IMG/VR virus record: IMGVR_UViG_3300029288_000002
Span: 1 to 64,000 of that record
Length of the DNA: 64,000 nucleotides
Strand: one strand, 5' to 3'
From: a virus
Taxonomy: Duplodnaviria > Caudoviricetes
The first letter of the stretch is position 1, and every line of letters starts with the position of its first letter. The translations under genes were made by a program, and so were the position numbers. This document shows positions 4,574-17,721 of the stretch, in pieces. A model generated the notes under the pieces. That model had not been told where the DNA came from, made no database searches, and saw only the letters and a list, made by a program, of their open reading frames with translations.

Positions 4574-4922
4574 TCTGGGGCGATATAATTATAGTACCTT
4601 GCCCCAATATATAATCTTTGCTGGTAGCAGTTTCTTGTAATACTGGCTGATAAAGGTATTTGCCAAATAACGCCTCAGTATCTGCCGTAGCCAATGTAAC
4701 AGTAACAATATTAGGTAAAGTAACAACCCCGTTTACAGCTTTTGTTAAAACCGTTGTTTGTCCATATAGTGCCATTCTAAAAACGCATGTAAAACCAGTT
4801 AAATCAGCAGGATTAAGCAGTGAAGAGTCAGTAAAATAATGAAATGTAAATTCATATTCAGTACCAGCAATAAATGAAACTTCGCCTAAATTATTCAAAG
4901 TTTCGTATGATGTATAACTCAT
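4560..4922 (-). CDS. small baseplate/tail-associated protein (BppU N-terminal-like)
   Basis: 120 aa, 'PADLTGFT...VTLATADTEALFGKYLYQ' pattern; RBS AAGGAG. Confidence 0.55.
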   Translation of the reverse strand: MSYTSYETLNNLGEVSFIAGTEYEFTFHYFTDSSLLNPADLTGFTCVFRMALYGQTTVLTKAVNGVVTLPNIVTVTLATADTEALFGKYLYQPVLQETATSKDYILGQGTIIISPQIASS

Positions 4923-4924
4923 TG

Positions 4925-5092
4925 TTACTCCTTATTGGGGGCATTCAATAATTTAGCCACCTCTTTTATGTTGTTTTTTGCTATATATAATGCCTCCAAA
5001 TTAGTATCAGTTGCATCAATTTTTAAAATATTGAGGGCTTGATAGCACTCAGTTAAACACTTGTTGACTTTTTCTAATAATTCTTTTTCCAT
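4925..5092 (-). CDS. 55-aa hypothetical protein (MEKELLEKVNKCLTECYQALN...), below ORF-track cutoff
   Basis: Translated by hand; GGAG RBS, ATG 5092, TAA 4925; fills the intergenic gap. Confidence 0.75.
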   Translation of the reverse strand: MEKELLEKVNKCLTECYQALNILKIDATDTNLEALYIAKNNIKEVAKLLNAPNKE

Positions 5093-5103
5093 TTTAAAAT
5101 CTC

Positions 5104-6552
5104 CTAAACAATGACATTGATTAATAAACCTTTTTCAAAAACCAGTGTAACACCGCCGACAGGAACACTCGCTCCCATTGCATAATCAGTAGTATTTACT
5201 TTTATAGTAGAACATTGGGAAACATCTAATCCTAATTCGTTTATATATAAAGAACTTGTGCCTTGACCTAAAGAAATGTAGTTTCCTAAGACAGGATCGT
5301 CTACTTGCAATAATATTTCCACAAGTGACGGAGTTGGAGATGAAGCAATTAATTCCAATCCGTTATCTGTAACAATTCTTGGCAATCCAGTTCCCCCCAT
5401 TTCTATAGTGATGTGAGGCCCGTGCATACTGCCGCCATAAATAAAATCACCAACCATCAAATCACCACTAAACACAGGATCGCCCACACTGGTTGTAATA
5501 TTATCGGCATATATATTCCCACTAAATGTTGCAGTTGATCCACTTATGTCTAAAGCACCCCAATGTAAGTCTCCGTTACTCTTGAGATAGTTTACTAAGT
5601 CTGTAGTATATAAACCGTCTGATGTAATAAGTAAACCGCCAATATGACCTGTGGTTAGTTCTGCAGCATTACCGCTCAACGTACCAGTAAATATAACATT
5701 TCCATTTGGATCAGCATAAAACTGATCTTCGTATGTTCCTGTAACTAATTTCTGAATACGAAAACCCTCTGTTGGGCTAATTAGAATCTTAGTATTGTTG
5801 CTATTACCATAAACCGTAAAATCAGCATTGGTCAGAGTCGCGCCGTTGCCGTCCACTGAAAACGTAGCATCCTCATTTTCTATAACCAGTTTGTTACCTG
5901 CTAAAAGATGACCACAAATTACATCTCCTATAATAAGAAGCAATGAAGAATCTCGTTTATTATTTGTAATATTGTCAATTTCATTTTTTGACATAAATTC
6001 AATTCCGTTTTTTGAAATAAACCATATTTCACAAAACCCGCCAATCTCTTCACACACCAATTGTTTATACGTGTTTTTTATTACTGTTTTAACATTTCTC
6101 GACATTTCTAATTCTTTCTCTAAAATAGCAATAGCATTTTTACTTTTTATTCCGGCAGAAAAAATACACATATTTCCTTTTGTGGGGGATTCTAATTTAA
6201 TAACATTAAAACTATTATATTCTGATATTTGATATGCCTCTATTTCGTCATTGCTCATTTTTACAACAATAATTTCTATGTTAAAATAATCTTTTGACCT
6301 TTTTATACCAATGTTTTTTAGTTCGTTTGATATTTTATAAACGTCAATATGTTCTTGATTCTCAAATAATTTAATTACATCTTCTACAATTGATAATTTT
6401 CCAGAACAAAATATAAGAGCATTTTTTATATGGAATATTTTTTTATAATTATTACCCACTCGTTCCCCAACTCCGTTTATAATTGTGGACACAGCAGTAT
6501 CAGACGCCATAATTAAAGTATCTCCGTTATTTAATATAATACAGTTGCTCAT
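5104..6552 (-). CDS. fusion: N-terminal proteasome-beta/Ntn-hydrolase-like domain (~aa 1-205) + C-terminal half of the tail-tip protein
   Basis: After Met removal: Ser1, Asp17 (LIMASD), 'KKIF', 'FCSG', 'SAG', 'EEIGG..EIWFISKNG' parallel proteasome-beta motifs. From 'IIGDVICGHLLAGNKLVIENE' onward it is a G/T-rich tail-like sequence. Confidence 0.7.
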   Translation of the reverse strand: MSNCIILNNGDTLIMASDTAVSTIINGVGERVGNNYKKIFHIKNALIFCSGKLSIVEDVIKLFENQEHIDVYKISNELKNIGIKRSKDYFNIEIIVVKMSNDEIEAYQISEYNSFNVIKLESPTKGNMCIFSAGIKSKNAIAILEKELEMSRNVKTVIKNTYKQLVCEEIGGFCEIWFISKNGIEFMSKNEIDNITNNKRDSSLLLIIGDVICGHLLAGNKLVIENEDATFSVDGNGATLTNADFTVYGNSNNTKILISPTEGFRIQKLVTGTYEDQFYADPNGNVIFTGTLSGNAAELTTGHIGGLLITSDGLYTTDLVNYLKSNGDLHWGALDISGSTATFSGNIYADNITTSVGDPVFSGDLMVGDFIYGGSMHGPHITIEMGGTGLPRIVTDNGLELIASSPTPSLVEILLQVDDPVLGNYISLGQGTSSLYINELGLDVSQCSTIKVNTTDYAMGASVPVGGVTLVFEKGLLINVIV

Positions 6553-7506
6553 TTTATGATCTCCCCTTTTTTAAATAACCTTCTTGATTCCAATCTTTCA
6601 ATATCATATAAGAATACGCAAGATCATTATTAGCCAAAGTTTCTAAATTTAAAAATAATGTTTCAGGGTTCGGAATATTTTTTCCAGATTTTATTCTTAA
6701 TATTTTATATCCTTTTGTTTTTAAAAACTCGTCTCTTTTTCTATCCCTTTGTTCTTCATGCCAATACCAAGAATCGTATTCTACATTTATTTTAACATCA
6801 TTAATTATTACAACTATATCTAATAATAGTTTAGATTCTGGAACATTTGCAAACACATTTTTGCATCCATATTTATCAATTAATATTTCGCATACTTTTT
6901 TTTGTTGTGATGATTCGCATGTCCTTGTTAAAAATAAATTTTTACGACAAATATCTAATTGAAAAGCAAAATCAACACCATATTTTTTTCTATTGGTCTT
7001 CTTTGTTTTTTCCTTTTTTGCTAATTTCGCCTCTTTACTCATTGATTGTTGAGAATTTGATATTTTCTTAGCGATGTCTGGATTTTGAGAAATAAATTCT
7101 ACTCCGTATCTTGAAAACACTGTGCTTTTAATGGTGTCTTTTACAATTTGCCGATACATAGGACTGCTTACTCCATACAATGCCATATTAACTTCTTTAT
7201 CTTTTTTACCTATACACTGTTGACAGCAATCCTTTTTTATAACAGAATCGTTCCTTTCTCTAAATAACGTTTTATATATTTTGGTAAATTCTTTATAGCA
7301 ATAATCACACTTTAATAGCACTCTATAATGACTTCCTTTTGTCAAATGTTCTATTGGAACAATAATAATATCATATAGTTTAACATTATATCCCAAACGA
7401 TTGTAATGCTTTATGTTTTTTCCCCCTATTTTTACTTCTACAAATTCTGTTAAAATCATATTATTAGTTCCTTATGATATATTTTTTTTGAAATTGCCAT
7501 GTCTTT
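5929..7506 (-). mobile_element. coding insertion splitting the tail-tip gene (endonuclease + Ntn-protease-like domain)
   Basis: Both tail halves are in the same reading frame; removing these 1578 nt gives ...GSTAYGII|GDVICGHLLAG...; insert is visibly AT-richer than its flanks. Confidence 0.65.
6554..7459 (-). CDS. free-standing putative homing endonuclease (Zn-binding N-terminus, YGV repeats, DUF559/Vsr-like nuclease C-terminus)
   Basis: CDYC/CCQQC; three YGV repeats; 'VEYDSWYWH...DRKRDEFLKTKGYKILRI'; basic, AT-rich. Confidence 0.75.
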   Translation of the reverse strand: MILTEFVEVKIGGKNIKHYNRLGYNVKLYDIIIVPIEHLTKGSHYRVLLKCDYCYKEFTKIYKTLFRERNDSVIKKDCCQQCIGKKDKEVNMALYGVSSPMYRQIVKDTIKSTVFSRYGVEFISQNPDIAKKISNSQQSMSKEAKLAKKEKTKKTNRKKYGVDFAFQLDICRKNLFLTRTCESSQQKKVCEILIDKYGCKNVFANVPESKLLLDIVVIINDVKINVEYDSWYWHEEQRDRKRDEFLKTKGYKILRIKSGKNIPNPETLFLNLETLANNDLAYSYMILKDWNQEGYLKKGRS

Positions 7507-9501
7507 AATTATTCCATACGCAGTGCTACCATCAGGAGTATCTATTTTTCCCAATGCTAATTTGGCAGTATTCCAATTATCGTCTGTAAATGCCAACACT
7601 TGTGAAGTTAGCCAGCACTGTTCGTCTTTATATATACCAGGCACACCTGGCGTAGCGAGTTCTCTCCCTCGTAACCCGTGTTGATCTATTATAATTTCTT
7701 GATTTGTGCTATTCACTAAATTGTTCACAGTAGCATTTAACGCAGAAGTAATAAAAGTGGAAACACTACCTTTATACTCTTTATCCCAATTGTACCAACT
7801 ATATTGCCCAAAATCTACACTTGTTCCTGTCTTGACTGTTTGACCAACCAAATCACTGTACACAAACTTTCCATTGTCTAAGCGCAATCGGTTAGAAAAG
7901 CTCAATGTAAAATCTTCTGGATTATCATAGTCAATTGCAATTTCAAGAACAACTGTTGTAATCGTAGCAGGAATATAATTTGTAGTTTGCGGAATACTGG
8001 CATCAATTGTAATCTCACAACCAGGAGCTAATTGATTGGTGAAGTAAAAATAGTCTTTAATGAAGGGAAAGTTGATAGTGCTTGCAGTAAACTCATATCT
8101 TGGAAGAGCTACTTTCGCCAAAACTTCTTGACCTTGATCATATAGTTCCTGTGATGTTTCTTGTATTTCCACAAGTGTCATAGTGTCTGTTTGAATAAAG
8201 TTATTGTTTTGATACGTATTCTCAAATATAAAATTGTTCAACTCTGTTAATTGAGGGTCAGTAAAGTTTGTTTCAAAATCCAAAAGAGTATTTATAGCAG
8301 TTATTTGTGCTTCAACAGCAGTAATCTGAGCTTCTTTATTAGTAATTGCAACATTGTCATTTGCTACAACAATCTCAGCAGCGTCTAATTCTGCTTTTTT
8401 AGGTGCATAAAACAATACATAATTAGAAGCAGGGTCAGTCGAATAAGTACCCCAACCCGCATTAATCATTACTTTTAGTTCATCTTGTAATGTCGCCACA
8501 GTTCCTTCATCTGTAGTTAAAGTGGATTGTAATGTAACCAACTCCCCATTGTATGTTTTATATGATGTTATCAAATTAGCATAAGCTGTTTGATTTGCCG
8601 CTATCAGGGACTCCCAGGCAGAAATAGCACTTATTAACCCAGCAGACATCCATTCTGTTGACTTATAATAATTAAAATTATAAATCTTATTACCACCAAT
8701 GGGGTTTACAGAACGAATATCCATATCACCAGCACCATAAACATACAAAACAGTCGTTATTTCATCTGATAATTCTGTGAGACTTCCGCTTTTTAAAAGA
8801 TTATCGAAAGAAATGTAAATATCTGTGCTTGTTGCTGCGGTTGCTATTGCTTTTGCACTTACTGTTTTCAATGTTGTATCAAATATAAACACACATCCGT
8901 AGGTTGTTTCAACATCGTTCATTAGGAAATCATATACAGTAGTATCGTTTACATCTGTAAACGTTCTATATTTAGTCAACAATGCTCCATCTACAGTACC
9001 AATTGTCCAATTTGGAGCGTATGCTGTTAGTATTTTTCCAAGTAATCCGTTAGCAGGGGTTAATACATCGTGTAATGGTACAGCAGCAGTAGTACCAAAC
9101 GCTAATATTTTCTTATTGCTCAATTCCATTTCTATAGATTTTGCAGTTACCAGTTTGGTATCTATCTCATATCCTTCTTTTTGCTCTTCTACTTCAGTAA
9201 CAATAAAATATCCGACTCCCACCAATTCAATTATCTTTTTGCTAACGATGTGATTATATGGATAGTTGGCAGGAAGGTATTGACTGGCTGGTACAACTTG
9301 TATTTTCGGAATAGTAAACGTTAAATCTGAAGCAGAGTTATAGCGCAATGTTAATTTTACATTATTAGAAACACTATCAAGACAAAATTGACGCGAATAA
9401 TCAGGATTACATAGATATATACCTGGCTTTTCTAATCTGTTGAATTTGTCATATATTACATACATTTTACCCACCAACCTTTCTCGCAAGTTTATATACA
9501 A
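7456..9501 (-). CDS. tail-tip / tail-associated (Tal-like) protein, N-terminal half
   Basis: Follows Dit; central coiled coil; 'QCWLTSQVLAFTDDNWNTAKLALGKI' pattern; ends with short extension KDMAISKKIYHKELII. Probable start MYVIYDKF at 9465. Confidence 0.75.
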   Translation of the reverse strand: MYINLRERLVGKMYVIYDKFNRLEKPGIYLCNPDYSRQFCLDSVSNNVKLTLRYNSASDLTFTIPKIQVVPASQYLPANYPYNHIVSKKIIELVGVGYFIVTEVEEQKEGYEIDTKLVTAKSIEMELSNKKILAFGTTAAVPLHDVLTPANGLLGKILTAYAPNWTIGTVDGALLTKYRTFTDVNDTTVYDFLMNDVETTYGCVFIFDTTLKTVSAKAIATAATSTDIYISFDNLLKSGSLTELSDEITTVLYVYGAGDMDIRSVNPIGGNKIYNFNYYKSTEWMSAGLISAISAWESLIAANQTAYANLITSYKTYNGELVTLQSTLTTDEGTVATLQDELKVMINAGWGTYSTDPASNYVLFYAPKKAELDAAEIVVANDNVAITNKEAQITAVEAQITAINTLLDFETNFTDPQLTELNNFIFENTYQNNNFIQTDTMTLVEIQETSQELYDQGQEVLAKVALPRYEFTASTINFPFIKDYFYFTNQLAPGCEITIDASIPQTTNYIPATITTVVLEIAIDYDNPEDFTLSFSNRLRLDNGKFVYSDLVGQTVKTGTSVDFGQYSWYNWDKEYKGSVSTFITSALNATVNNLVNSTNQEIIIDQHGLRGRELATPGVPGIYKDEQCWLTSQVLAFTDDNWNTAKLALGKIDTPDGSTAYGIIKDMAISKKIYHKELII

Positions 9502-10258
9502 AGCTAATAGAAGAAATTTGTCCGCTTACAGTATATGCGTTGATTCCATTTAACAATCTTGGCCAAAAACCATTAAAATTGTCAAATATAGATAACCCGC
9601 TTGACGAATAGATCATTTGTAAATTTGAATTGATCGTTATAGTTTCATTAGCCACAATACTATTCTGAGTAGTGGTAATTACATCTGTATTATTTGTTAG
9701 TACTAAATTACCGCCACCTGTTCCGTTTACTACAGCAGTTACTACAGGATATGTGTAGTCAATGTTGTCAGTAATATTGTTTATTGTAAATGTGGCACTG
9801 GAAGGAGGAGTCGAGTATGTAACGGTATAAGGGTTAATATCCTGCCATCCCCAGGGGGAGTCACAATGGACAGTACAATCAAAGCCCACTATTTTATTAC
9901 CGATCCTTTGTATTTTCGGTTCTTTCAAAAAAACGTTAAAATAAATATCTTGCATATCATATTGCATAATTCTAAGTCTTTTCCATTGTAATTGCCCAAA
10001 TAACCATTTTTGTACCAAAGTTGTCTCCATTGCGGTTAGTTCTTCTGGTGTATAAATGGATACTGGAAATTCCAAAACTGGCGTTTGTTTAACGCCTAAT
10101 AGAAAAGGTGTTGATCTACGAAAAGGCATATCTGTTACAAGTTCAACATCATTCGCGCCATTTGTAGTAACATCGCCACCCGAAGGCGATGCTATATACA
10201 AATTATAAGTTTCACTTGGTATGCCATCAAATGTAAACGTGTGAGCAAAGAAACCCAT
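9467..10258 (-). CDS. distal tail protein (Dit-like)
   Basis: 263 aa immediately after the tape measure gene; 'FTFDGIPSETYNLYI', 'CDSPWGW', 'WPRLLNGINAY'. Confidence 0.75.
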   Translation of the reverse strand: MGFFAHTFTFDGIPSETYNLYIASPSGGDVTTNGANDVELVTDMPFRRSTPFLLGVKQTPVLEFPVSIYTPEELTAMETTLVQKWLFGQLQWKRLRIMQYDMQDIYFNVFLKEPKIQRIGNKIVGFDCTVHCDSPWGWQDINPYTVTYSTPPSSATFTINNITDNIDYTYPVVTAVVNGTGGGNLVLTNNTDVITTTQNSIVANETITINSNLQMIYSSSGLSIFDNFNGFWPRLLNGINAYTVSGQISSISFVYKLARKVGG

Positions 10259-10284
10259 TTATTCTCCTTTTATATAATAACAAG

Positions 10285-10317
10285 CCCTAAGTATTACTGT
10301 TTTAGTAATACTTAGGG
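10285..10317. terminator. 14-bp stem hairpin after the tape measure gene
   Basis: CCCTAAGTATTACT-GTTTT-AGTAATACTTAGGG; no strong U-tract. Confidence 0.5.
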
Positions 10318-10323
10318 TCTATA

Positions 10324-13300
10324 TTAAACTGAAAACGGTTTTGCTGTTCTGACAATACCGCGTGAACCTAAAGCACTATTCAATTTACCAACGACCTTAT
10401 TAGCTATTTTCTCTATGTCTGGTAAGACACTGCTATCAAGATTCCCTTGTACTGTTATTTCCATGACTTTGCCAATATTTGTTGCGGCATTGGCGATATT
10501 TGTTGCTGCTTGCCCCATCATAGATGGTAAAGTTTTAGTCATAAACGTGTTCATTTGTTGAGGATTTACCACTATCTCGCCATCTAATAACTTAGCCAAC
10601 TCTTCGTTGGATTTCATGGCAAATTGACCACCTACAACGCCCGATTTTACACCAGTATGTTTGCCGATAATACCGTTGCCATTCAGATCAAGACCGTAGT
10701 TTATTTCTTGCTGCCCCACATTAGATGTAGTATTGGCTAAAGAAGTGTCTAAATTACTAATAGCAGTTATCGTATTCGCTATTTCTTTTGCTGCGTTTTT
10801 GGCATTTTCAATAACTTCCAGCAATTTCAGCGAAGCATATTGATAATCTATTTGGTCATTAAGGTTCTTGTACTTCTCTAATACTGCGTATGTACTATCC
10901 CAAGCCTCTTTGACTGTAGCATCAATCCCGTCGCCATAAACTCTGTTCCATTCAATAAGACTCGCATAAAAAGCAGAAGACTTATTATTGATCATATCCA
11001 TTGCATCATTGGCAATCTGTCCGCTTTTCTCTAAATATTCTTCTATAACTCTGACTTTAGCGTCTATTACTGTTTCAAAATTCTTATAGTCTTGGTCAAG
11101 AGCTTCTTTTTCTTCGCTGTACTGGTGATCGCGTTGATACTTTGCTATTTCTTCTTTCTTTTTAGCTTCTTCATCTTGCAATGCTAATCTCTTTGCTTTA
11201 GCCTCTTCACTATCATCCATTGCTAAATCAATTAGCTCTTGCTGTATTGTAGCAAGGCTTTTGTTCTTATCTGCTAATTCGTCTTGAAAATCAGCTTCTT
11301 CTTTAAGATTATCAATATAATCTTTCTGAGTATCAATCAGTTTCTTAAAATCACTTAACTCAGTTTTCAGAGCATCTCTTTCTGCTTCTTTTTGCTGTTT
11401 TATCATTGATATTGTGATTTTAAGTAGATCGCCTAAAGCATCTAACGACTCTTTAGCAGCATCGCCTACATCTTTTGTGCTATCAGCCAAATCTTTTACA
11501 GCACTACTGGCTTTACCTGCAGTGCCTGTAATTTGATTAAACTTCTCTAAACCAAAAACATTAGCATTTAGTGTAAATGTTGTACTAAGTTCTGTAGCAC
11601 CTTGTCCTATTCCTTCAATAAAGTTAGCAATTTGACCACCAACATCACTACCAGAGAAGTCAATTTCAACGCCGTTCATAGACAAAACATTTATGTTTTT
11701 GCCAAAAACGTTAGCAGAAAGATCAAACTTTTCACCTGTTTGTTTGGGGTTAATGTTTATCTTTAAATCAAAGTTTCTAACAGTTTCGGCTAAACTATGT
11801 AGCATATTACCGATATTTGCCATTACATCACGAATAACATTTTGTACTGATATTGCTGTTTGTTGTGCCACTATTTCAAAGTTACCAGTACTTTGAGACA
11901 TATAGTTATATATGTCGTCTGATGTTTTTAGTATATTCCCCTGAACATCTGTAAACACTTCGCCAGATTGCGCGGCAGCATCAGCAACGATTCTCGTTTG
12001 TTCTTCGTAATCTTTTGTGCCGACTTGAATTGTTTCGTCTAATATTTTACCACGGGCAATATCTACAGACGATGCTAATTCTTGCATATTCTTTAGCTTT
12101 TCATTAGCAGCAGTAAGATTTTCTGTGTTTTTTATTCGTTCTGCACTATCTTCCGCGCTTTCATCACCATACCCCGCCATCATATTGTTTATAACGCCAA
12201 ATACATCTGTAAGTTTGGTAAGTTCACCCATATAGTCAACAATACCAATTTCACCAGAATCGAACATTGTATTTATTTGCTGTAATGATTCGCTTGCGTT
12301 ATAAACCAGTCCGCTAAAGAAGGTTTCGGCAGCTTCTTTGTTATCGCCAAATGTTTTCGTCATGTCAATACTTTCCAACTCGACTTTCAGTTGTTCAAAA
12401 TATTCATTTGACGAAATTACACCTTGCTCGTTTAGGTAATTAAGCTCTGTTAGTTGTTTGCCTATTTTCGCAAACTCTAAATTAACTTCACTGTAATCGG
12501 CTAAATCTATATCAGTAGTACTACCTGTTGTAGCAGTTAACGGTTTACTCTGAATCGCCATTAGCTTATTGGTTGCATTTAGTATATCTTGGAATGAATG
12601 AGCATACTCTTTATTATCCGGTGTTGCTCTTGCAACCTGATCTCGATAATTTTTCAATATCGCAGTTTCTTGTTCAGTAGCCCCTGCTGCCTCTCTCGCT
12701 ACTATTGCCTGATCTATTTTAGAAAGGTTATATTGTTTTACCGCATCTGTGTCTAATACAACCTGCCCACCTTCAACCTTTAAGGCTGAAATAAGGTCGG
12801 GATAAGTATTCATAAGATCAACAATATCAGTAAATTCTAATTTCCCTTCGAGAGCAGAAGAGCTTATTTTTGTTAGATTTGATATATCTTTGTTGAGCAA
12901 TGACAATGTTGAGGCTAAAGTTGAATATGCCTTATTTAGCTGTTCTATCCCCTCTACCATTGGAGAAACAATACCGTCTCGTATTTCTTTACCGTCTAAC
13001 AGCGATTGATCTTTTATTACGGACATTTCTGCTACAAAATGTTCAGCTAATACAATGGTCATACCATACATATTTTTACCAATGAGATCGCCGTTTTCAG
13101 ATATAGAAAGACCAACTTCGTTGGCAGCAGATATTATTTGGTCTTTATATTCTTGATAATTGGTAGAACTTTTTTGTAAAGCAATATTTAACTCAACTAA
13201 ACCCTTTTTAGCAATATCAGTATCGCTTACAAATGCCCACCCGAAAGCGTCCATACCACTTGCGCTTTCCCTTGCCGCTCTCATTGCTTTTATTGAGTTA

Positions 13301-16300
13301 GCATACGCATTAACTAAATCGCCAGCTTGTTTGCCTTCTTGTTGCAAGGATTTAAACATATTAGAAAAAGACGCTTCTACTTCTTTATTTCTTTTTTCTA
13401 ATTCTTGGCTTAATTCATATGCTTTAGTACCAGCATACACCATAGTAGTCAAAGCTATAACAAACAAACCTTGTGCAGCGTTTAATGCTAATTGAGCAAT
13501 TGTTTGTTTTACTGTTGCTCCCGTTAAACCAGTCAACATTGGTATAATGCTACCCAAAATACCAGGTAACGTTTTTATTAGAAACGTTTTGCTAACTTCA
13601 ACATTCAGCGCAATCATATCAATAACCAAAAGTTCAAGTATATCTACTACCATACGCAATGGCTCTGGTAGTTCGTCCACATAACCAATAATACCGTCCA
13701 AAGCATCTATCAAACCTATACCAACATCATATGCAGATTTGATAGCGTCTGAATTACCAATAAGCTGTACTAACTTTTCCCATGACTGTGTTAGTCTATT
13801 CGCTTTAGCTTCTACCGATTCAAGGTATATGCCAAAGCGTTGTGTTGCTGATCCCGTAGCGTCTTCTTGTATTTTTAAGAAGCCTACTTTACCAGCAGCG
13901 TTACCTATTACTTGGTCGTAGTTCGACATTAGGATCAAAAAATTTTCTCGCTGCCGGGTTGAATCTGTTACTTTTATGACTATCATGGTATACAATTACT
14001 TTATGATAGCGAATAGGAATCTCTTCCTACTTCTACAGTTTCATTATTATATTATATCTGTAGTCCAGATCATATCTTAGTCTTATTATAGACTGATGAC
14101 GTGGCTTTAGTTGTTACCAACTAAAGCCTGTTGATCGTTACGAGTTCTTATTTATAAACATTTTAAAAACATTGTCTAAGTTGTGTAAATCTTTTTCAAA
14201 TATTTCTATAAGAGGTATTTGACAATCCCTGCAAATAGCTCTTTTTATATTCATTCCTTCAACATAACTTTGCTTTTTAGGAAATCCGAAATATTCTACA
14301 ATAACATTGTCAATTACCCAATCGGTTCTTTTAAAACAACATCTTTCATCGTTGCAATATTTAGAATAATATTCTTCTTTCAAATAGTTTATTCCGTGTA
14401 AATATAAATAATCACATATTGCCACTTCTGCTTTTGAAAAACAATCATCCCCTCGCAAAGATGTTAGTATACTGTTTTCTCTTCCAAACGGAGAAAATAA
14501 AGTTTTTAATCCTACTGCTTTTTTTGCTTTTGTGTAACTTCCAAAATATCTCGCATATGCTTTTGGAGTCGGCAATCCGTACAAACTCAATTCAGCACCC
14601 AAAGGCGTTCTATTTAATTTAACAGATAGTTGTTTTAAATCTTCTAACATCTTTTCTTTATCATACCATTTTACACTCTTTTCTTTTGTTTTATGCAAAC
14701 CATTTTTCAAAGCCATTGTTCTTATACTATGAACTGCACGATTTGGAAAATACTTTTCTTTTAAATATTTGTTTGTGTAAAACGGATATACTTCCTTTAA
14801 AAGTTTCATATCCTCTTCAGTCCACTTTTCTACTCGTGTTAGATTTAGTTCTGACAATTTTTCATAAATTGTAAAAATATTTCTGCCTGTTTGTTTCGCA
14901 AGAGTTTCACAACTTTCTATTAGGTAATTATTCTTTAAATATTCAATTTCTTCTTCCGAAAATCTATACCCGTTGACCGTTATTCCTAACTCGGAGGCTT
15001 TATGGCGTATTGTATCCATTTTGTCTGTTTCTAATAATTTACACAATTTGTCATAGTTTCGAGTTGGATAAACTTCTCTTAAAATAGCTATTCTTTCTTC
15101 ATTCCAATGCCACTTTGTCATTATTATTCCTTTAAAATAATATTGTGATCAGCAACTTATTAAGGGATTGTTAATAAGTTTAAAATAAATGTTTATAAAC
15201 AAGTCTTCTCTCGGTATTGTCTGTATCCAGAGTTTCACCGATATGGTCATCTTCCAGTGATAATTACATCACCCGTATATCGCTATACGTTCTGGCACTC
15301 ATTTTACCAGCGATTGCAGCGGCGGTTGCGGATTTGTCTACATCAGTTAATGTGTTCCATTTCTTTGCAACATCATCTAACACATCTCCCATATTGCGGA
15401 ATGTGTCTTGACTATCTCTAATCTTAATATCGATTCTGGATAAAGCTCTTTCAACATCATTAATGCTTGCGCCTTCTTCATCCAATTTACCAAGTTTAAT
15501 ATTTTCCATGCGTGAGAACATTGTAGCGCACTTTGTTACTTTGCTATACAATAGCAAGGAGATACTTCTTCTGAAAGTGTCTTTACACTTGAGTATCTCT
15601 CACTATATTACTATAGTGATCAGACTGTTGCATTTTCATGTTTAAACATGAAATTGATTCGGTCAGTCTTTGCAACTGCACTCTATTATTAATAGATGCT
15701 TGTTGATCGTTATCCTCAATTAAGTAGGACTTTCGACATTAATTAGAATCAATTTTCATTAGAGTTTATGTGTTATGCTCTAATGCCTCCAACCCTTATC
15801 GGGAAAAGGAAGTTCCAATGGACTCCGCAGACCTTCTACTTATGGAACTCACAAGACCACAATCTGTTGCTTTTATGACCAATTTCATATTGGCGAGCAG
15901 GTATTTTTGCCTGCTTCCACACGTTCATTTAGGTTATATGTGTGGTTCGGAATAAATCATACCCCTCAAATAAGTAGGGGTGTTGGCGTGTGCATACTGT
16001 TACCAGGATGCAACTTATTCTCTACGGGTTCTGTTAATTGTCTAACAGCCTTGCCCTCGGAATCGTCCTGTCCATAGGAGTTTTTCCGATAAAAGCCAAC
16101 TTTACATTCATATATTACTATATGAAGACACTATTATTAATGTAAGCCACTAAGCGTTCCATACTTACACCCACGTTTTGTGCTGAAACAGCACTTCTTT
16201 GCATACCATCTGCTAATTCTGATGCACTGGTCGCAGCCACATTATCTCAAATCTGTTACTAAAGATTATGGCTAAATCTTTTAAGACCTATTTATTATAG

Positions 16301-17721
16301 GCGTTTAGGAATTTCTTCCTAAATCTGCAATTTTATACTTCGCATAGTATTTGCAGACCCGACTGAATATTAACCCTATTGTTGTAGGGTGATGACTTCA
16401 GAATATGTGTTACCACACACTCCCCGCAGTCTGTAGAGGTTCTCTATATAAATAGAGCCTTCCTTCGGTCTCTTCATTGCGAATTGACTTTGACCGATAT
16501 AGTCATCTGCTATCTGGTATAACCAGACCATATATTACTATATGTTTCGGCAAACTTTACCGCTATTAATTTATCCACCACGCCCACTGCATCTTTAGCT
16601 TCTAACTTGAAACCGTTAATAATACTCGTTAAATATTCCGTAGACTGAGCAGAATCCATATTGCCTAATTTAGATAACATCATAGATGCTTTCATTAACT
16701 CTGCTGATTCGGATATAGTCTTTCCCTGCCGAATCCAGGCCAAATTTCCTTCAGCAACTTCTAACGTAGTAGACCCTAACTCTTTAGCTAAACTATTATA
16801 ACTTTTAGCTAAACTATTAGCTTCATCTTTAGTCATACCCGTTACGACTCGCGCGTCAGTCATGGCTTTATCTAAATCTTTGATATACTGAACACCATTA
16901 CCTATTGCCTCTAATGCTCCGTTAATCAAACGAGAAGTAGCTGCAAACTCTACCGTAATCTTCATAGCATCGCCTAAACCAGTAATCCAATTACGAATAG
17001 AGAAGCCGCCAGACTTCAAAGAGGAATTTAGCACATCTAATTCTTTACTTAGTTTTCTTACCTTATCAATATCACCAGTACTTACTGCTGCCTTTAGTTG
17101 TTGTGCAATTCCTTTACCCTTTTCTACATCTGATCCGCCAATAGTTTTTGCCTTCTGTAGAAATTTATCGGCTTGAGTATTTGCCTTTTGCAGTTCTGCA
17201 TTTAGCGACTTTTCTCTGGCAATTTCGTTATCTGTATATTTGTTACTAACCAACCTAAACTCAGTTGCTTTTCCTGTTGCTTTAGATTCCTCTTCTGATA
17301 ACGACACCAGTTGATATTTTGCTGTTACTGCTCTTTGTAAAGCGTCTTGATATTGAATAGTGGCTCTGGTTACAGATTCACCGGTTACTTTATCTACATC
17401 AGTACTAACACTATATGACGCGACCTTAGTATTAACATTGGCGTTTATATCGTTGATTTTGTTTTGCAATTCTGTCAAAACATCTCTGGACTTTCCAACA
17501 TCAATTTTTATTTTTACATCTGCCGCTGAGGCTTTAGTTTTATCTATTTCTTGTTGTATGCCCGTTACAGCAGTTTTTGCTTGTTCCGCGCCCTGTGTAT
17601 TAAGTGTCACATTCAGATTAAAGTTATACTTCTTCTCTAACGCATCAATTTGAGACTGTATCTTACTTGCATCTAATACCGTCTCAAGCATTAGTCTATA
17701 TTTATTTGTATTTCCCGCCAT
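10324..17721 (-). CDS. tape measure protein, spliced from 5 exons (17721-16559, 16247-16140, 15859-15806, 15528-15306, 13959-10324); 1727 aa
   Basis: Exons total 5184 nt and join in frame: ...VDKLIAV|DNVAATSASELADGMQRS...LVAYI|GLVSSISRRSAESIGTSF|ATMFSRMEN...AAIAG|TRQRENFL..., a typical TMP core; long helical protein upstream of Dit. Confidence 0.9.
13960..15305 (-). mobile_element. group I intron 4 of tape measure gene (1346 nt) with endonuclease ORF looped out of P6
   Basis: P1 CUGGU|AAAAUGAGUGCCAG; P3 GAUGAC/GUCAUC; stem CUUGUUUAUAAACAUUU/AAAUGUUUAUAAAUAAG brackets the ORF; P7 ACGAUCA/UGAUCU; ends ...AGUAACAGAUUCA. Confidence 0.88.
14138..15121 (-). CDS. intron-encoded putative homing endonuclease
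   Basis: Repeated W/F-x-EE HTH-like units, 'KLNRTP...YARYFGSY' repeat, C-terminal 'S..E...RTDW...VEYFG' nuclease-like motif; own RBS AAAGGA inside intron 4. Confidence 0.8.
   Translation of the reverse strand: MTKWHWNEERIAILREVYPTRNYDKLCKLLETDKMDTIRHKASELGITVNGYRFSEEEIEYLKNNYLIESCETLAKQTGRNIFTIYEKLSELNLTRVEKWTEEDMKLLKEVYPFYTNKYLKEKYFPNRAVHSIRTMALKNGLHKTKEKSVKWYDKEKMLEDLKQLSVKLNRTPLGAELSLYGLPTPKAYARYFGSYTKAKKAVGLKTLFSPFGRENSILTSLRGDDCFSKAEVAICDYLYLHGINYLKEEYYSKYCNDERCCFKRTDWVIDNVIVEYFGFPKKQSYVEGMNIKRAICRDCQIPLIEIFEKDLHNLDNVFKMFINKNS
15529..15805 (-). ncRNA. group I intron 3 of tape measure gene (277 nt, ORF-less, lacks P7.1)
   Basis: P1 CCUU|...GAGG; P3 AUUGAUUC/GAAUCAAU; P6 CAAC/GUUG; P7 AAGACUG/CAGUCU; ends ...AGUAACAAAGUG. 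Confidence 0.85.
15860..16139 (-). ncRNA. group I intron 2 of tape measure gene (280 nt, ORF-less)
   Basis: P1 ACAU|UAAUAAUAGUGU; P3 GUUGGC/GCCAAC; P4 UCGGAA/UUCCGA; P7 GAGAAUA/UAUUCC; ends ...AGCAACAGAUUG. Confidence 0.9.
16248..16558 (-). ncRNA. group I intron 1 of tape measure gene (311 nt, ORF-less)
   Basis: P1 CGGU|AAAGUUUGCCG with U.G; P3 GAUGACU/AGUCAUC; P4 UCGGUC/GACCGA; P7 CAGACUG/CAGUCG; P7.1 hairpin; ends ...AGUAACAGAUUUG. Confidence 0.9.

Follow-up and report, generated by a model that had tools for sequence, protein, structure and literature searches.

A mobile cassette is inserted in the most conserved motif of a Tal-like tail-tip gene in the window, that is, the whole 64,000-nucleotide stretch of DNA analyzed here (positions 1 to 64,000 of IMG/VR record IMGVR_UViG_3300029288_000002; Duplodnaviria, Caudoviricetes). 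The window is part of a complete 165-kb phage genome in which direct terminal repeats are present. The cassette divides the gene into an N-half and a C-half, is sporadic among unsplit homologs, and codes for a homing-endonuclease homolog and for a proteasome-fold N-terminal nucleophile (Ntn) domain fused to the C-half. The initial annotation had read it as an element that repairs the broken gene at the protein level by an Ntn enzyme. Our results partly support this reading, and we tentatively favor the possibility that the cassette enzyme ligates the two halves in a manner like that of Connectase.

Selfish insertions are known to spare their host gene by RNA splicing (introns), by Hint protein splicing (inteins and split inteins), or as splits that are tolerated. 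Here, a different enzyme class, a proteasome-like Ntn enzyme, accompanies a homing endonuclease at one tail-protein motif.

Organization of the Split Tail-Tip Gene

On the minus strand, the tail module is arranged in the order tape measure, Dit (distal tail protein), and then three tightly packed open reading frames (ORFs). Residue numbering throughout follows the listed ORFs, and the N-half is counted from TTG 9501. The features are as follows.

7456-9501, minus strand: N-half ORF, 681 aa as listed
6554-7459, minus strand: endonuclease ORF, 301 aa; its start overlaps the N-half stop by 4 nt
5104-6552, minus strand: C-half ORF, 482 aa; it starts 1 nt after the endonuclease stop
5923-7500, minus strand: cassette, 1578 nt of low GC; 14 codons and a stop, the endonuclease, and the 210-aa domain
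7501..9501, minus strand: N-extein, the host part of the Tal-like tail-tip protein, through Asp667
7456..7500, minus strand: N-half tail derived from the cassette, 14 codons and a stop; the low GC starts at 7500
5962..6552, minus strand: Ntn domain with the proteasome-beta fold, C-half aa 1-197; putative nucleophile Ser2 after the initiator Met
5923..5961, minus strand: disordered linker and pre-sequence ending in IIGD; proposed scissile bond Asp210|Val211
5104..5922, minus strand: C-extein, the distal tail-tip part, aa 211-482 and the stop
9467-10258, minus strand: Dit, the upstream neighbor (PF20195, PF20753)

The three ORFs and the motifs IIKD, IIGD, KKIF, CSG, SAG and EEIGG are all present as the initial annotation had described them. 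IIKD occupies aa 664-667 of the N-half (7512..7501) and IIGD occupies aa 207-210 of the C-half (5934..5923). The GC content is 0.35 in the host part on the N side and 0.38 in that on the C side, and 0.26-0.27 in the cassette. The step is sharp at 7500, and the other border lies near 5900.

Since Dit is directly upstream, the split gene is identified as that at the Tal position. The order of Dit and split gene is repeated in six of the related loci described below (L002, L003, L006, L012, L014 and L019). The N-half also matched the minor tail protein family phrog_6211 (E-value 8e-68, profile positions 10-622 of 1168).

The TTG at 9501 that is listed as the N-half start overlaps Dit by 35 nt, and an ATG at 9465 (Met13) is placed 1 nt past the Dit stop. 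Because the consensus N-terminus of 65 homologs fits ATG 9465, the TTG start is likely to be wrong. Judging from this alignment, the true N-half probably has ~669 aa, and a joined product would have ~927 aa instead of the ~940 aa given initially.

The Insertion Point in Unsplit Homologs

About 100 of the best 120 relatives of the N-half are single proteins of 875-940 aa. The N-half is 38-47% identical to these unsplit homologs over 98% of its length, and the C-extein aligns to their residues 620-687 and onward. Both the final 75 residues of the N-half and the C-half beginning at residue 207 can be aligned with them, with ~18 residues in common, and the homologs are continuous across the junction. 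Thus, the insertion point is located inside a motif that is uninterrupted in ~100 homologs. In this motif, an aromatic residue and Gly precede two hydrophobic residues, Ala and Asp; V-I-V-G and then a Leu-Ala-Gly-Asn stretch come next. It is the best-conserved stretch of the tail protein family, and several of its columns are invariant.

The initial annotation had considered that related phages might normally encode the halves as two genes without a cassette. This is not the case: the relatives are mostly unsplit, and the short ones that were examined (P0017, P0025, and the N-halves of loci L009 and L010) are each followed by the same cassette. No stand-alone C-extein gene was found among proteins of 149-476 aa; the sole match was another Ntn-fused C-half, and the sensitivity of the word index used for this search is limited.

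The structure of one unsplit homolog (P0004) was predicted with a mean predicted local distance difference test score (pLDDT) of 76.5. In this model, the junction Asp623|Val624 ends the last strand (616-622) of a small beta domain, and a 12-residue non-regular segment and then a beta-rich distal part come after it. Therefore, in the model the break parts the distal from the baseplate-proximal region at a domain boundary. The distal part is presumably receptor-binding, and a simple break at this boundary would, according to the model, leave no obvious interface.

The Cassette Codes for a Proteasome-Fold Ntn Domain

The AlphaFold (AF2) model of C-half aa 1-210 has a pLDDT of 88.8 and a predicted template-modeling score (pTM) of 0.85; aa 198-210 are below pLDDT 50 and disordered. 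In Foldseek, the domain model matched 20S proteasome beta subunits (E-value 1e-10, probability 1.0). In exhaustive comparisons with VIA-align, beta subunits gave Z scores of 20.1-19.3, with a root-mean-square deviation of 2.4-2.7 over 173-176 residues, followed by Anbu (Z 16.9), HslV (Z 15.9) and BPH (Z 13.8). In these superpositions, residue 2 of the model coincides with the first residue of mature beta subunits, HslV and Connectase. The domain has the four-layer alpha-beta-beta-alpha Ntn fold (MEROPS T1 / clan PB). The fold assignment rests on the structure searches; when the Ntn profile was compared with PDB sequences, the match to beta5 was borderline (E-value 0.03).

An exhaustive HMMER search of 1.84 billion cluster representatives yielded 247 relatives of the domain at E-values up to 0.001. 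In all of the best 150 of these, the protein starts with the domain, which is never internal. Their median length is 532 aa and the maximum is 1461 aa. The protein begins with Met/Leu/Val-Ser in 133 of the 150. In another six, whose start was probably miscalled, an internal Met-Ser or Ile-Ser is present; the remainder look truncated at the N-terminus. D18, K38, G51 and the GG at 171-172 are identical in all 117 aligned members, and R31 and G134 are nearly so. D18, K38 and G51 correspond to Asp17, Lys33 and Gly47 of the proteasome, an equivalence that derives from their spacing and the overall superposition. Asp is thus residue 17 once Met is removed, as had been noted at the start.

As far as the sequence predicts, a residue pattern of this kind marks an active Ntn enzyme that lacks a propeptide and would be unmasked by Met removal. 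Ser2 would then be the first residue of the mature chain, if, as we infer, the initiator Met is cleaved off. Hence the initial identification of a proteasome-beta Ntn fold with an exposed nucleophile agrees with the AF2 model, the Foldseek and VIA-align searches and the conserved residues. Ntn enzymes require a free N-terminal nucleophile. This requirement accounts for a cassette that restarts translation and turns the gene into two ORFs, instead of an intein-like insert in frame.

Junction Anatomy and Mimicry

In the 117 aligned members, the Ntn domain is followed by a short variable linker, then by a conserved pre-sequence, and then by the native V-I-V-G of the tail protein. The pre-sequence consists of His or an aromatic residue, Leu/Ser, two hydrophobic residues, Ala/Gly and Asp/Glu. 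P6-P2 are conserved, and the last residue (P1), directly before the proposed scissile bond, is acidic in 98 of the 117 (Asp or Glu).

The pre-sequence imitates the end of the N-extein. Over P8-P1, the BLOSUM total at 10 loci is +86, which none of 20000 shuffles reached. At the other end of the cassette, the first 8 residues of the N-half tail imitate the C-extein start in register (BLOSUM62 total +19 at 11 loci; 0 of 3000 shuffles), and the totals at all other offsets are negative. The IIxD duplication reported by the initial annotation is therefore present, whereas its extent of four residues was too narrow: ~8 residues on each side of the junction are mimicked. The duplication exists at the protein level only, with 18 of 75 nt identical in the DNA. 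Neither a target duplication at the DNA level nor terminal or flanking repeats of the cassette were found.

The N-half tail has 12-15 codons across the loci. In every one of these tails the Shine-Dalgarno sequence of the endonuclease is visible, and the endonuclease start codon overlaps the stop. We had considered the whole 14-residue tail as a functional mimic; this was rejected in part, as the 3′ half consists of the translation signals of the endonuclease.

At P2 of the N-half (7504-7506 in the window; compared in L001-L014), unsplit homologs have Ala, and split N-halves have Lys, Gly, Thr, Cys or Asn, except L014, which has Ala. The changes at P2 and P1 in split N-halves may be an adaptation to the enzyme or an escape from the endonuclease. 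When a complex between the Ntn domain and the 50 C-terminal residues of the N-half was predicted, the score was 0.01, which bears neither way on binding.

The Endonuclease Gene

The N-terminal part of the middle ORF matched PF24308 (DUF7487) with 36.9 bits (cut-off 27). Its C-terminal part matched DUF559 barely above the cut-off (22 bits against 20.6), and MTES_1575 scored below its cut-off (29.4 bits against 38.2). The ORF also matched phrog_12131, a family of homing endonucleases, with an E-value of 2e-20. No meaningful match was obtained with PDB sequences. Thus, the middle gene is a homing-endonuclease homolog by PF24308 and phrog_12131, as had been suggested initially. It would be a free-standing enzyme with a DUF7487 N-terminal part and a putative Vsr/DUF559-like nuclease C-terminal part. 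The endonucleases at the same position in nine other loci are 30-54% identical to that of the window.

Recurrence of the Cassette

The layout N-half, DUF7487 endonuclease, Ntn-C-half was found in 11 loci, namely the window and 10 others: L001 (Perkons), L002, L003/L004, L006, L009, L010, L011, L012/L013, L014 and L019. The association of the domain with an endonuclease and a split tail gene, as first claimed for the window, thus holds in 11 of the 13 contexts examined. The GC content of the endonuclease is below that of the host parts in every locus. The same is true of the Ntn segment except in L014, where it is below that of the N-half only.

Psychrobacillus phage Perkons (L001; MT325768, 3297-8646) is a cultured phage with the cassette. 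It was the only match among 50,697 phage records in tblastn searches with three queries. Megablast of the region gave no match, and a profile from a narrower alignment of the domain matched only 3 viral contigs. In the Perkons annotation, the N-half (ORF187) is named 'tail protein', the endonuclease (ORF186) 'hypothetical protein' and the C-half (ORF185, 881 aa) 'putative tail fiber protein'; these ORFs are not discussed in the published Perkons papers.

In one locus (L007), the endonuclease has been lost and the Ntn domain kept. The gap between the N-half stop and the Ntn start is 40 nt (700-820), and the N-half tail retains the ribosome-binding site of the lost endonuclease and the ATGTTAA start/stop overlap. 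That the domain is kept without the endonuclease argues that the need of the host gene is for the domain rather than for the nuclease. In this respect, the endonuclease-less cassette resembles mini-inteins.

In distant hosts, whose N-halves are 21-33% identical, the endonucleases are 28-47% and the Ntn domains 26-39% identical. In close hosts (43-55%), the cassette is conserved no better than the host gene. By this comparison, the history of the cassette is partly uncoupled from that of the host gene.

Relatives of the domain also occur in other settings. An Ntn-C-half of 1071 aa is present in Paenibacillus tianmuensis (L018; FMTT01000016, 5001-8216). Neither an N-half nor tail genes are near it; the island around it includes AbiH, a nuclease of the HNH/NUMOD4 type, SocA/Panacea and a gene resembling AEP-TOTE primases. 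The locus could represent a prophage in decay, or the protein could have been repurposed. Three free-standing Ntn relatives of 196-221 aa have their own stops: L008 (1447-2037), L015 (L015/L016; 3214-3816) and L017 (440-1105). Of the three, one directly follows an unsplit tail gene, another follows a Mu gp48-type baseplate module, and the remaining one is by a transposase remnant and an acyltransferase. They could be the source pool of the domain or trans-acting versions of it.

The Ntn-fused proteins of L019 and L007 end in a Peptidase_S74 intramolecular-chaperone domain, so that one polypeptide would carry two different self-processing modules.

Proposed Mechanism and Alternative Explanations

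In the mechanism that we propose, Met would be removed, and the exposed Ser1 (Ser2 of the ORF) would recognize a motif of ~16 residues on both halves. Ser1 would cleave after the acidic P1 residue, at Asp667 of the N-half and Asp210 of the C-half. The N-half acyl group would then be passed to the freed amine of Val211, as in the ping-pong reaction of Connectase. The outcome would be a continuous tail-tip protein of ~927 aa, and the tail peptide and the enzyme would be discarded as 'enzyme-tail' waste. Virion assembly could pull the equilibrium toward the native tail protein, and the endonuclease would spread the cassette by cutting unsplit alleles at the same motif. The mimicry at both ends of the cassette is what an exchange between two substrates with the same recognition sequence requires, as with Connectase.

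Several observations weigh against ligation. The hydrolytic beta subunits (Z ~20) are closer to the domain than Connectase is (Z 10.3-10.4). The Shine-Dalgarno sequence and the start codon of the endonuclease account for the last 5-7 codons of the N-half tail and for its constant length, and the mimicry that remains is mostly a hydrophobic pattern. Since the loci share ancestry, the shuffle statistics overstate their independence. The N-half P1 is Asn in two loci. The Ntn-C-half of L018 is an orphan, and the domain relatives in L008, L015 and L017 have no adjoining split gene. Moreover, cleavage, and still more ligation, is a step that we infer from the anatomy of the cassette and from the Connectase analogy.

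It is rather unlikely, yet the next most probable explanation, that the enzyme would only cleave. It would remove itself at Asp210|Val211, perhaps trimming the tail of the N-half, and the halves would come together in the baseplate by non-covalent assembly. Both the fold and the catalytic residues are indeed as in hydrolases, the pre-sequence with its acidic P1 is conserved, and tail proteins commonly assemble from separate subunits. Endonuclease-split phage genes that work as non-covalent halves have also been described (Aeh1 NrdA, PMC3045599; SbcD-like, PMC2677866). However, cleavage alone does not explain the C-extein-start pattern in the first ~8 residues of the tail; a 200-aa enzyme would be maintained merely for its own removal; and at the domain boundary where the break falls, no interface is evident. 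The possibility that Ser1 attacks the N-half after P1 and the acyl group shifts to the Ser1 amine seems improbable to us. This one-step tether would give a continuous chain of N-half, Ntn domain and C-half, in which the blocked domain remains as an insert. Ser1 of the domain is free in all cases, only the N-half motif would have to be recognized, and an amide-linked enzyme-substrate state is documented for Connectase (PMC7980362), whereas only a small fraction of Connectase is in this state (PMC7980362) and the conserved pre-sequence before the C-extein would be unexplained.

The Ntn domain could instead be a cargo enzyme, a protease of the virion or the infection that acts, for example, on host envelope or defense proteins and is unrelated to the split, the halves being two subunits. 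Enzymatic domains are common in tail-tip proteins. The Ntn domain has free-standing relatives outside split genes, and the orphan copy is retained in the Paenibacillus island near AbiH. In contrast, the domain is always exactly at the break, it precedes the same host motif with the mimic of the N-extein end in 117 sequences, and it is retained in L007 despite the loss of the endonuclease. Thus, we consider the cargo explanation unlikely, though less so than the tether.

Restoration of one frame by an intron, ribosomal bypass or read-through is the least credible explanation, and we give it hardly any weight. In its favor, the halves share a frame in the window, to which the initial annotation had attached meaning. 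However, an N-half lies directly upstream in 12 loci (11 besides the window), and both halves are in one frame at only 4 of them; because of this, the shared frame is regarded as a coincidence at the level of chance. The insert codes for two conserved proteins with invariant catalytic residues. No Rfam intron match was found over 4800-17000 at E-values up to 1, and in >100 clusters the Ntn domain and the C-extein form one continuous frame. Together with the 4 of 12 frames, these two results are strongly against repair at the RNA or translational level. A Hint or intein Pfam match was likewise not found on the three proteins at E-values up to 0.1. At the +1 position, most members have Val, Thr, Arg or Ala, and the window locus has Val, where inteins have Cys, Ser or Thr. 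The initial statement that intein and intron signals are missing thus agrees with the Pfam and Rfam searches.

Ligation by the cassette enzyme therefore stays our favored, tentative explanation. The cassette could then be a third type of self-repairing selfish insertion, next to introns and inteins, with a Ser1 transpeptidase and with motif mimics as leaving groups; we put this forward with equal reserve. If ligation is true, it would be a new principle of protein splicing and a natural system of sequence-specific protein trans-ligation in phages. It would provide a biological rationale for Connectase-type chemistry and a candidate tool for scarless protein ligation with a new recognition sequence. 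If the enzyme only cleaves, the cassette would still be a new solution to gene fracturing. Phage annotation, as in Perkons, currently treats such halves as a 'tail' protein and a distinct 'tail fiber' protein. Since Perkons is a cultured phage, the question can be put to a direct test.

Comparison with Known Systems

In fractured genes, a free-standing and often Vsr-like endonuclease is placed between split-intein halves (Dassa et al. 2009, PMC2677866). The window locus has the same arrangement of a free-standing endonuclease between the two parts of a host gene. The cassette shares with fractured genes (PMC2677866) the overlapping coding junctions and the stop and new start supplied by the element, and its nuclease may likewise be related to Vsr/DUF559. 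In contrast to them, it has no Hint or intein halves; a single 200-aa domain of proteasome fold is present on the C-half only, and the +1 residue is usually Val. The hosts also differ: the host of the cassette is a structural tail gene, whereas those of fractured genes are DNA-metabolism genes. In phage Aeh1, nrdA is split by a free-standing endonuclease, and this essential phage gene is still functional without ligation (PMC3045599). Unlike the cassette, the Aeh1 insertion carries no catalytic domain.

The domain resembles 20S beta subunits, HslV, Anbu and BPH in its fold, in the nucleophile at position 1, in the equivalents of Asp17, Lys33 and Gly47, and in the GG near the C-terminus. It differs from them by the lack of a propeptide, by Ser in place of Thr, and by a tail-protein extension of 270-1250 aa. 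The family is probably FC4 (representative WP_076223917.1), a Firmicute-restricted proteasome-like domain with C-terminal domains resembling phage tail proteins (Fuchs, Alva, Lupas et al. 2021, PMC8665760). We matched the two by description, namely Firmicutes and a tail-like C-terminus, with one member from Paenibacillus tianmuensis. The FC4 paper mentions no split gene, endonuclease or insertion motif, and its model was withheld as unreliable (PMC8665760). In full-text searches on DUF7487, and on the combination of proteasome-like domains, tail proteins and homing endonucleases, the cassette was nowhere described. Its composition is thus without described precedent.

Connectase has Ser1 or Thr1, and both of its substrates carry a recognition sequence of ~20 residues, with 5 residues before and 10 after the KD|PGA site (PMC7980362). 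The N-terminal part of one substrate is held on Ser1/Thr1 and is then moved to the amine of the C-terminal portion of the other (PMC7980362). The cassette domain shares with Connectase the Ntn fold and the Ser1/Thr1 nucleophile, and it would share the cut after Asp that is proposed here; an exchange of C-terminal parts would give the product that is needed. The two are not close relatives by structure, with Z 10.3-10.4 to Connectase (DUF2121): the domain retains the first helix pair (helices 53-64 and 71-81 in the AF2 model), whereas Connectase is without it (PMC8665760). Connectase substrates carry KDPGA, which is absent from the cassette junction; there, two hydrophobic residues, Ala/Gly and Asp/Glu are followed by V-I-V-G. 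Unlike Connectase, the domain is fused to its own proposed substrate and is part of a mobile cassette.

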